Shown in pieces: positions 61,941 through 62,649 of a stretch of 64,000 nucleotides of DNA. The translations under genes and the position numbers were made by a program. The stretch lies in the NCBI RefSeq assembly GCF_056746865.1, contig NZ_CM163382.1; one strand, given 5' to 3'. Under the pieces are notes generated by a model, which had not been told where the DNA came from, made no database searches, and saw nothing but the letters and a program-made list of their open reading frames with translations. Every line of letters starts with the position of its first letter. The stretch's first letter is position 1.

Positions 61941-62649
61941 TAAATATCCTCCGGCATAGCCGGAGGTTTTTCAAATGCGCCTATAAGGCTCTCTTACCAG
62001 CCGCGCCCTAACAGGCGCACACGATCTGACATTTGCATCCAACTTCGTTACTTACGGCCCGTAAACGGGCTGCCCGGATAGGGAATCGATAACTGCTCTC
62101 CCATTTTATCCTCTTCAAGCTGGTGCTTTATGTAATCCTGTATCTTCGCCGTGTTCTTACCCACCGTATCGACGTAGTACCCTCTGCACCAGAACTCCCT
62201 GTTCCTGTATTTGAATTTCAAATCACCAAACTGCTCGTAAAGCATCAGACTGCTTTTCCCTTTCAGATATCCCATAAAGCCGGATACGCTCATTTTGGGC
62301 GGGATCTCCACAAGCATATGGATATGATCTGCACAGCATTCAGCTTCCAGAATCCGTACACTTTTCCACTCACACAGCTTTCTCAAAATACTGCCTATTG
62401 CTCTACGCTTCTCTCTGTAGAACACCTGTCTTCGGTATTTTGGCGCAAATACTATGTGATATTTACAGTTCCATCGGGTGTGCGCTAAGCTCTTTTCGTT
62501 CCCCATTGGGACCCCCTTTTGATTTCTTGTTTGACACTTGCAGTTGCCAGACCGCAAGGTGTTTTAACAAATCAAAAGGGGTTTTAATAACTGGCTTAAA
62601 GCTGAAAGCTTTCCGGAACCCCCAGCCTAGCTGGGGGTTTTCTGTGCAC
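61941..62649 (-). mobile_element. IS200-like element (IS200/IS605 family), ~709 bp, boundaries +/-3 bp
   Basis: Encodes a 152-aa Y1 transposase; terminal hairpins ATCCTCCGGCATAGCCGGAGG and CCCCCAGCCTAGCTGGGGG; size fits IS200; no inverted repeats. Confidence 0.85.
62048..62506 (-). CDS. tnpA: IS200 transposase TnpA (HuH Y1 transposase)
   Basis: MGNEKSLAHTRWNCKYHIVFAPKYRRQVFY...HIHMLVEIPPKMSVSGFMGYLKGKSSLMLY: HuH motif and catalytic Tyr region. Confidence 0.92.
   Translation of the reverse strand: MGNEKSLAHTRWNCKYHIVFAPKYRRQVFYREKRRAIGSILRKLCEWKSVRILEAECCADHIHMLVEIPPKMSVSGFMGYLKGKSSLMLYEQFGDLKFKYRNREFWCRGYYVDTVGKNTAKIQDYIKHQLEEDKMGEQLSIPYPGSPFTGRK

Follow-up and report, generated by a model that had tools for sequence, protein, structure and literature searches.

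In the stretch of DNA analysed here, 64,000 nt long and referred to as the window, the sensor kinase gene ypdA is interrupted by a complete copy of the insertion sequence IS200C. The best explanation, to which we assign a probability of roughly 0.93, is that this copy recently transposed into the ypdA coding sequence in the lineage of the strain. As a result, ypdA is a pseudogene in this strain and the kinase is null. The relevance of the insertion lies chiefly in the annotation and in the phenotype of the strain; the event itself is an ordinary knockout by an element that is already known.

The ypdA open reading frame lies on the + strand and begins with a GTG at position 61349. Its 5′ part corresponds to the annotated ypdA of Escherichia coli strain 118UI and shows no difference from it up to position 61940. 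A first-pass annotation, made from the sequence alone, had proposed that the frame is cut after the residues LVQSVEGE, and translation agrees, with codon 197 ending at position 61939. Past this codon, the ypdA frame reads 23 codons of foreign DNA and reaches a stop at 62009-62011. The ypdA sequence resumes at K198 (position 62652), and the change of frame that had been noted there is confirmed by the positions themselves (61349 mod 3 = 2, 62652 mod 3 = 0). Because the inserted 712 bp equal 3 × 237 + 1, the part of ypdA from K198 onwards is placed in another frame. Deletion of positions 61938-62649 in silico joined the flanks into one continuous frame, which encodes a protein of 565 aa identical to the annotated YpdA of 118UI.

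Pfam matches on the reconstructed YpdA comprised 5TM-5TMR_LYT (residues 28-192), GAF (226-343), His_kinase (PF06580, 359-438) and HATPase_c (456-553). All four LytS-type domains are thus present in the reconstructed protein, and in the window the insertion splits them over two frames. For this reason, we regard ypdA here as a disrupted gene and not as a functional member of the LytS-type sensor kinases. The break point falls five residues beyond 5TM-5TMR_LYT, at the start of the cytoplasmic linker toward GAF. The insertion had earlier been placed in the membrane domain, and this location needs correcting to the cytoplasmic edge of that domain. The predicted loss of the sensor stands, with the whole cytoplasmic signalling part of the kinase out of frame. 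The kinase is null because neither the frame nor a start codon is left for translating the GAF, phospho-accepting and ATPase domains. In the 3′ fragment, the first in-frame start is a GTG at 62790, within the GAF domain, and our analysis found no promoter evidence for a soluble kinase fragment re-initiated from this codon. The membrane domain, extended by a junk tail of 23 residues, may still be produced.

The extent of the insert was determined by comparison with the empty site in 118UI, which reads GAGGGCGAAAAAGAGGCC. In the window, the junctions read GAGGGCGAAA, then TAAATATCC...GTGCAC, then AAAAAGAGGCC. By this comparison the insert measures 712 bp and not 709 bp. Its placement is ambiguous because three A residues may belong to either the insert or the flank, with 61938-62649 and 61941-62652 as the two extreme positions. 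This 3-nt A-run is compatible with zero target duplication, if the element is 712 bp long, or with a duplication of 1-3 nt. The E. coli copy at locus L009 ends with ...TATTTATT, followed by AC, and the right-end tip thus gives an element of 711 or 712 bp. The features of the locus are listed in Table 1.

Table 1. Features of the interrupted ypdA locus, in window coordinates.
Feature	Position	Strand	Description or basis
ypdA 5′ fragment	61349-61940	+	Codons 1-197 plus one base; complete membrane sensor domain
Truncated ORF, 220 aa	61349-62011	+	197 native and 23 IS-derived residues, then stop
Inserted DNA, IS200C, 712 bp	61938-62649 (unambiguous core 61941-62649)	- (tnpA strand)	Empty-site comparison; IS200C identity
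Right-end subterminal hairpin, 8-bp stem, 3-nt loop	61948-61966		Terminator scan of both strands; DNA fold; RNA fold
tnpA, 152-aa HUH/Y1 single-strand DNA transposase	62048-62506	-	NF033573; PF01797; HIH at residues 61-63; catalytic Tyr125
Large 5′UTR stem-loop	62513-62581 (arms 62513-62528 and 62566-62581)		Inverted repeat I2, 94% complementary; fold
tnpA 5′UTR region, Rfam STnc490 match	62516-62639	-	RF01405, 146.1 bits; RNA fold z -3.7
art200 antisense RNA	Opposite strand of the 5′UTR region	+	STnc490 match; IS200 description in PMC4513863
Left-end hairpin, 10-bp stem	62617-62639		Inverted repeat I9, 100% complementary; DNA and RNA folds
Target T5 run (AAAAA on +)	62650-62654	-	Abuts the left end on its 5′ side, read along the tnpA strand
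ypdA 3′ fragment	62652-63758	+	Codons 198-565 and stop; linker, GAF, His_kinase, HATPase_c; +1 relative to the 5′ fragment; identical to 118UI
ypdB, first 76 codons	63773-64000	+	Cut by the window end; identical to 118UI

Positions 61941-62649 were identical over 709 of 709 nt to E. coli copies carrying the RefSeq annotation "IS200/IS605-like element IS200C family transposase". They were likewise identical to an IS200C copy of 118UI, the closest relative of the strain. This stretch is therefore a full-length IS200C copy in minus-strand orientation; within the IS200/IS605 family, IS200C falls in the IS200 group. The element is common in the species: 3,095 of the 5,426 complete E. coli genomes gave matches, at 10,744 places in total and at up to 35 in a single genome. 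The initial description of an IS200-like element of ~709 bp with a 152-aa HuH Y1 transposase was borne out, apart from the length of the insert. The tnpA product scored 147.7 bits against NCBIfam NF033573 (transpos_IS200, cutoff 55) and matched Pfam Y1_Tnp (PF01797) over its full length, with an E-value of 4e-38. It is related to the solved structures 2EC2 and 2F4F, to IS608 TnpA (2A6M) and to ISDra2 TnpA (2XM3), with Sulfolobus elements among these relatives. The HUH motif of the transposase takes the form HIH, and residue 125 is the tyrosine whose exchange in the mutant Y125F leaves IS200 TnpA catalytically dead (PMC4513863). Within the 712 bp, which conform to a length of ~0.7 kb, tnpA is the sole ORF with a family match, and there is no tnpB.

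The 5′UTR of tnpA shows the features specific to IS200, namely a left-end terminator, a stem-loop that sequesters the Shine-Dalgarno (SD) sequence and an antisense art200 region. The Rfam match to STnc490 covers the full model length (1-124), with a score well above the gathering threshold of 56 bits. In the published description of IS200, the left-end hairpin is a bidirectional rho-independent terminator at nt 12-34, the stem-loop occupies nt 69-138, and art200 is a 90-nt RNA starting from nt 153/154 (PMC4513863). On the + strand, the large stem-loop in the window is followed by TTTT, which likely marks the end of art200. The right-end hairpin has TTTTT behind it on the + strand, and on the minus strand it is positioned after tnpA. 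Terminal hairpins without inverted repeats had been proposed for this element, and we agree on both points, as an inverted-repeat search and folds revealed no terminal inverted repeats pairing the two IS200C tips. Two further candidates were rejected. A partial palindrome across the left junction (I3) is a by-product of the palindromic GTGCAC together with an A-run facing a T-run. A match to the Yersinia sRNA Ysr202 at 61905-61971 reached 34.5 bits against a gathering threshold of 315 and reflects only the right-end hairpin; the Yersinia RNA probably overlaps the end of an IS1541/IS200-like element.

The joined flanks, used as a 600-nt probe, identified an uninterrupted ypdA site in 5,419 of the 5,426 complete E. 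coli genomes. When the same genomes were queried by megablast with a 1,309-nt probe over both junctions, none contained the insertion at a coverage of at least 80%. The 220-aa truncated product had no exact match in a large assembly collection. Given the absence of the insertion from all 5,426 complete genomes, it is a recent transposition private to the strain and no old relic. The surrounding 22.9 kb differ from 118UI, a urine isolate, by a single 1-bp indel and a single SNP. A copy that is identical to others and absent from 5,426 complete genomes indicates that IS200C is still mobile in E. coli. Published work regards IS200 as a mostly dormant element (PMC4513863).

Read along the strand of the element, TTTTT abuts the GTGCAC left end in all five independent E. 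coli IS200C copies examined. The four other copies lie at four intergenic loci (proY/brnQ, yghA/exbD, adeD/uhpT and ssb/yjcB), and at each of them a GC-rich hairpin ends in the T-run and forms the terminator of a neighbouring gene. For a wider sample, one genome per species was scanned for the exact 19-nt left-end hairpin CCCCCAGCTAGGCTGGGGG. A hairpin with a T-run ended just before the element in 80 of 111 distinct upstream flanks, compared with 6 of 522 control positions from the same loci. The flanks were sampled across many phyla, and most of the 111 had a T-run before the element. This survey points to the position directly behind the T-tail of intrinsic terminators as the preferred landing site, which would account for IS200C so seldom breaking genes. 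A recent preprint reports terminator-like sequences upstream of IS200/IS605 elements, a similar tendency at the level of the family.

The ypdA target was also considered as a mimic of a terminator, and this was rejected. It failed a strict test that demands a perfect stem of at least 5 bp, and its fold (z -0.76) was no better than that of shuffled sequence, so our claim for this site is limited to the T5 run. The ypdA insertion is most plausibly an atypical case in which the element used a bare T-run, with a weak GC-rich hairpin upstream. Just 5′ of the left-end hairpin, GAAAA is found in all variants, and the first 8 nt of the element are variable. For IS608, a study by Barabas and colleagues from 2008 reportedly showed that bases 5′ of the hairpin act as a guide by pairing with the site of cleavage and of target recognition. 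By analogy, we infer that the A-run 5′ of the IS200C hairpin may read the target T-run.

The exact CCCCCAGCTAGGCTGGGGG hairpin (loci L012-L131) recurred in widely separated groups, among them Oxalobacter, Vibrio, Mailhella/Desulfovibrio, Bacillota, Elusimicrobia and Saccharibacteria MAGs, with many copies per genome and frequently at the ends of contigs. These findings suggest that one IS200 lineage, its hairpin highly conserved, has spread widely by horizontal transfer. One of these loci (L106:290-370) contains a head-to-tail tandem in which ...CCTCCGGCTATGCCGGAGGATATTTATT is joined to GTGCCCAG..., placing the left end of one copy directly behind the right end of the other. At this locus, the element thus seems able to use its own right-end hairpin, with the T-rich tail, as a landing site.

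The single-domain HUH/Y1 transposase would move IS200C as single-stranded DNA, in the manner known as "peel and paste". The element would have entered the antisense strand of ypdA directly 3′ of TTTTT, without target duplication. A T-run is the usual type of site for IS200C, in the form of the U-tract of intrinsic terminators, and in this case the site is a T5 run inside a gene. The GC skew of the + strand is -0.033 and, as far as a window of 64 kb can serve as a soft indicator, this puts the active strand of the element on the G-rich strand and hence on the lagging-strand template. According to work from 2010 attributed to Ton-Hoang and colleagues, this is reportedly the orientation expected for the IS200/IS605 family.

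The consequences of the insertion may extend beyond the kinase. According to published work, YpdA responds to extracellular pyruvate by activating YpdB, which has yhjX as its only direct target (PMC4847170; PMC5552118). We predict that YpdA-dependent induction of yhjX by high pyruvate is lost in this strain. The ypdB start lies 14 nt past the ypdA stop. The first-pass annotation had taken ypdB as intact; the window covers its first 76 codons, and these match 118UI without difference. On the + strand, a ypdA transcript meets three terminator-like structures in series: the right-end hairpin, the large stem-loop with its TTTT, and the left-end hairpin. RNA folding gave -18.1 kcal/mol (z -3.8) for the right-end hairpin and -22.1 kcal/mol for the left-end hairpin. 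Transcripts from the ypdA promoter would stop at the right-end hairpin, and little transcription would leave IS200C. The terminator hairpins facing the ypdA transcript, together with the 14-nt gap between the genes, suggest polarity on ypdB. Judging from these sequence features, ypdB and ypdC are probably poorly expressed too, in which case the strain may not simply have a sensorless but otherwise working system.

Other differences from 118UI were found elsewhere in the window. The first-pass annotation had counted evgS (47058-50650) as another two-component sensor inactivated in addition to ypdA, and the comparison supports this. Relative to 118UI, a 1-bp deletion (GG to G at ~48803) puts the evgS frame out of register near codon 582 of 1197, with the first stop codon some 10 codons further on. 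The deletion was found in none of the 1,684 complete E. coli genomes matched by an 80-nt probe, and it may be genuine or an error of sequencing. Also absent from 118UI is an IS2 copy, of the IS3 family, at ~18286-19609, with an InsC-like ORF (18332-18742) and an InsD-like ORF (18700-19605). It occupies the boundary between an adhesin gene and a subunit gene in a yfc-like chaperone-usher fimbrial operon. Only three complete genomes reach 80% coverage for the IS2 region (85-88%, as two joined pieces each), and these may carry the same insertion. At ~36005-36030, by tRNA-Arg, 118UI contains a ~39-kb prophage with an integrase that is absent from the window, where yfdC joins the tRNA-Arg region directly. 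At ~41649-41867, dsdX is an N-terminally truncated pseudogene, according to the annotation of the identical 118UI region, and adjoins csc genes for the use of sucrose, namely cscA and the gene of a LacI-family regulator. This dsdX/csc arrangement is a known type of replacement at that locus.

We weighed the transposition into ypdA against an assembly artefact, in which a repeated IS200C copy was misplaced and the gene is really intact. IS200C is multicopy in the related genomes, occurring at 7-10 places in 118UI and relatives, and an artefact would also fit the absence of the insertion from other complete genomes and of the truncated product from any record. However, both junctions are base-exact, the element is complete, and excision of exactly 712 bp restores the ypdA frame. 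The copy moreover sits precisely behind TTTTT, like every copy examined, and a misjoin is unlikely to obey the target rule at both ends. An artefact is thus highly improbable, and we retain a genuine transposition into ypdA. For the effect of this transposition, the loss could be confined to the sensor. In uropathogenic E. coli (UPEC) strain UTI89, the non-cognate kinase BtsS is reported to act with YpdB in inducing yhjX (PMC9765748), so yhjX might still be induced when only YpdA is missing, and the phenotype hinges on whether ypdB is still expressed. If it were, through an internal promoter or read-through, and if BtsS phosphorylated its product, the yhjX pathway would be rewired and not lost. 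The urinary origin of 118UI and the unchanged visible part of ypdB are compatible with this, and a weak promoter-like match in the 3′ part of ypdA, upstream of ypdB (63361-63389, 9/12), could still drive the gene. Yet such matches occur at chance level (5 found against 4.0 expected), and the three + strand terminator-like structures inside the element argue against sufficient transcription reaching ypdB. Rewiring therefore seems a tentative possibility, and a rather doubtful one.

The lesions could also reflect selection, with the strain shedding its acid- and pyruvate-sensing two-component systems through the IS200C insertion in ypdA and the frameshift in evgS. The EvgS and YpdA lesions lie within 14 kb and are both private among complete genomes, and two of the three small differences from the near-identical 118UI in 25 kb disable sensor kinases. 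The functions of the two systems would be compatible with this, as yhjX is acid-induced in UPEC (PMC9765748) and evgS of 118UI is annotated as an acid-sensing system histidine kinase. In addition, IS200C, usually regarded as almost dormant, inserted within a gene, at a site with no strong terminator hairpin. If the losses were adaptive, they would provide a live example of IS200 activity aiding niche adaptation in E. coli. However, no statistical claim can be built on two events, the evgS deletion could be a sequencing error, and the third private insertion, of IS2 in the fimbrial operon, points to general pseudogene accumulation or IS activity instead. The 64-kb window holds several private disruptive changes, but the two that affect sensor kinases are not enough to argue selection, and we consider adaptive loss improbable. 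A recent IS200C transposition that knocked out ypdA remains our preferred reading.

The interrupted system can be compared with the pyruvate-responsive YpdA/YpdB pair, which is of the LytS/LytTR type. The reconstructed protein is identical to annotated YpdA and has the same four domains, but in this strain the gene is split after residue 197 and the kinase is non-functional. Compared with IS200C elsewhere in E. coli, the element sequence is identical over 709 bp and has the same flanking TTTTT. Only the location differs, as the other copies examined are intergenic and behind terminators, whereas this one lies inside a coding sequence.

The element also closely resembles IS200 of Salmonella enterica, as studied by Ellis, Haniford and co-workers (PMC4513863). 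Both are ~0.7 kb long and carry a single tnpA with a catalytic Tyr125. They share an SD-sequestering stem-loop with the same SD, AAGGGGGU, and a 5′UTR/art200 region that matches Rfam STnc490. The left-end bidirectional terminator hairpin is at nt 12-34 in the Salmonella element and at nt 11-33 here. The Salmonella element is a different allele, reported as 707 bp compared with 709-712 bp here, and was compared by its published description (PMC4513863). More distantly, IS608 of Helicobacter pylori and ISDra2 of Deinococcus radiodurans encode homologous HUH/Y1 TnpA proteins (E-values of 4e-19 and 2e-16, respectively). They are also alike in having subterminal hairpins without inverted repeats, and in inserting 3′ of a short fixed sequence at the left end. 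IS608 and ISDra2 make no target duplication, and the A-run in ypdA is compatible with none or with one of 1-3 nt. The two elements additionally carry tnpB and target TTAC or TTGAT. In contrast, IS200C carries only tnpA, and its target is a T-run that is usually the tail of an intrinsic terminator.
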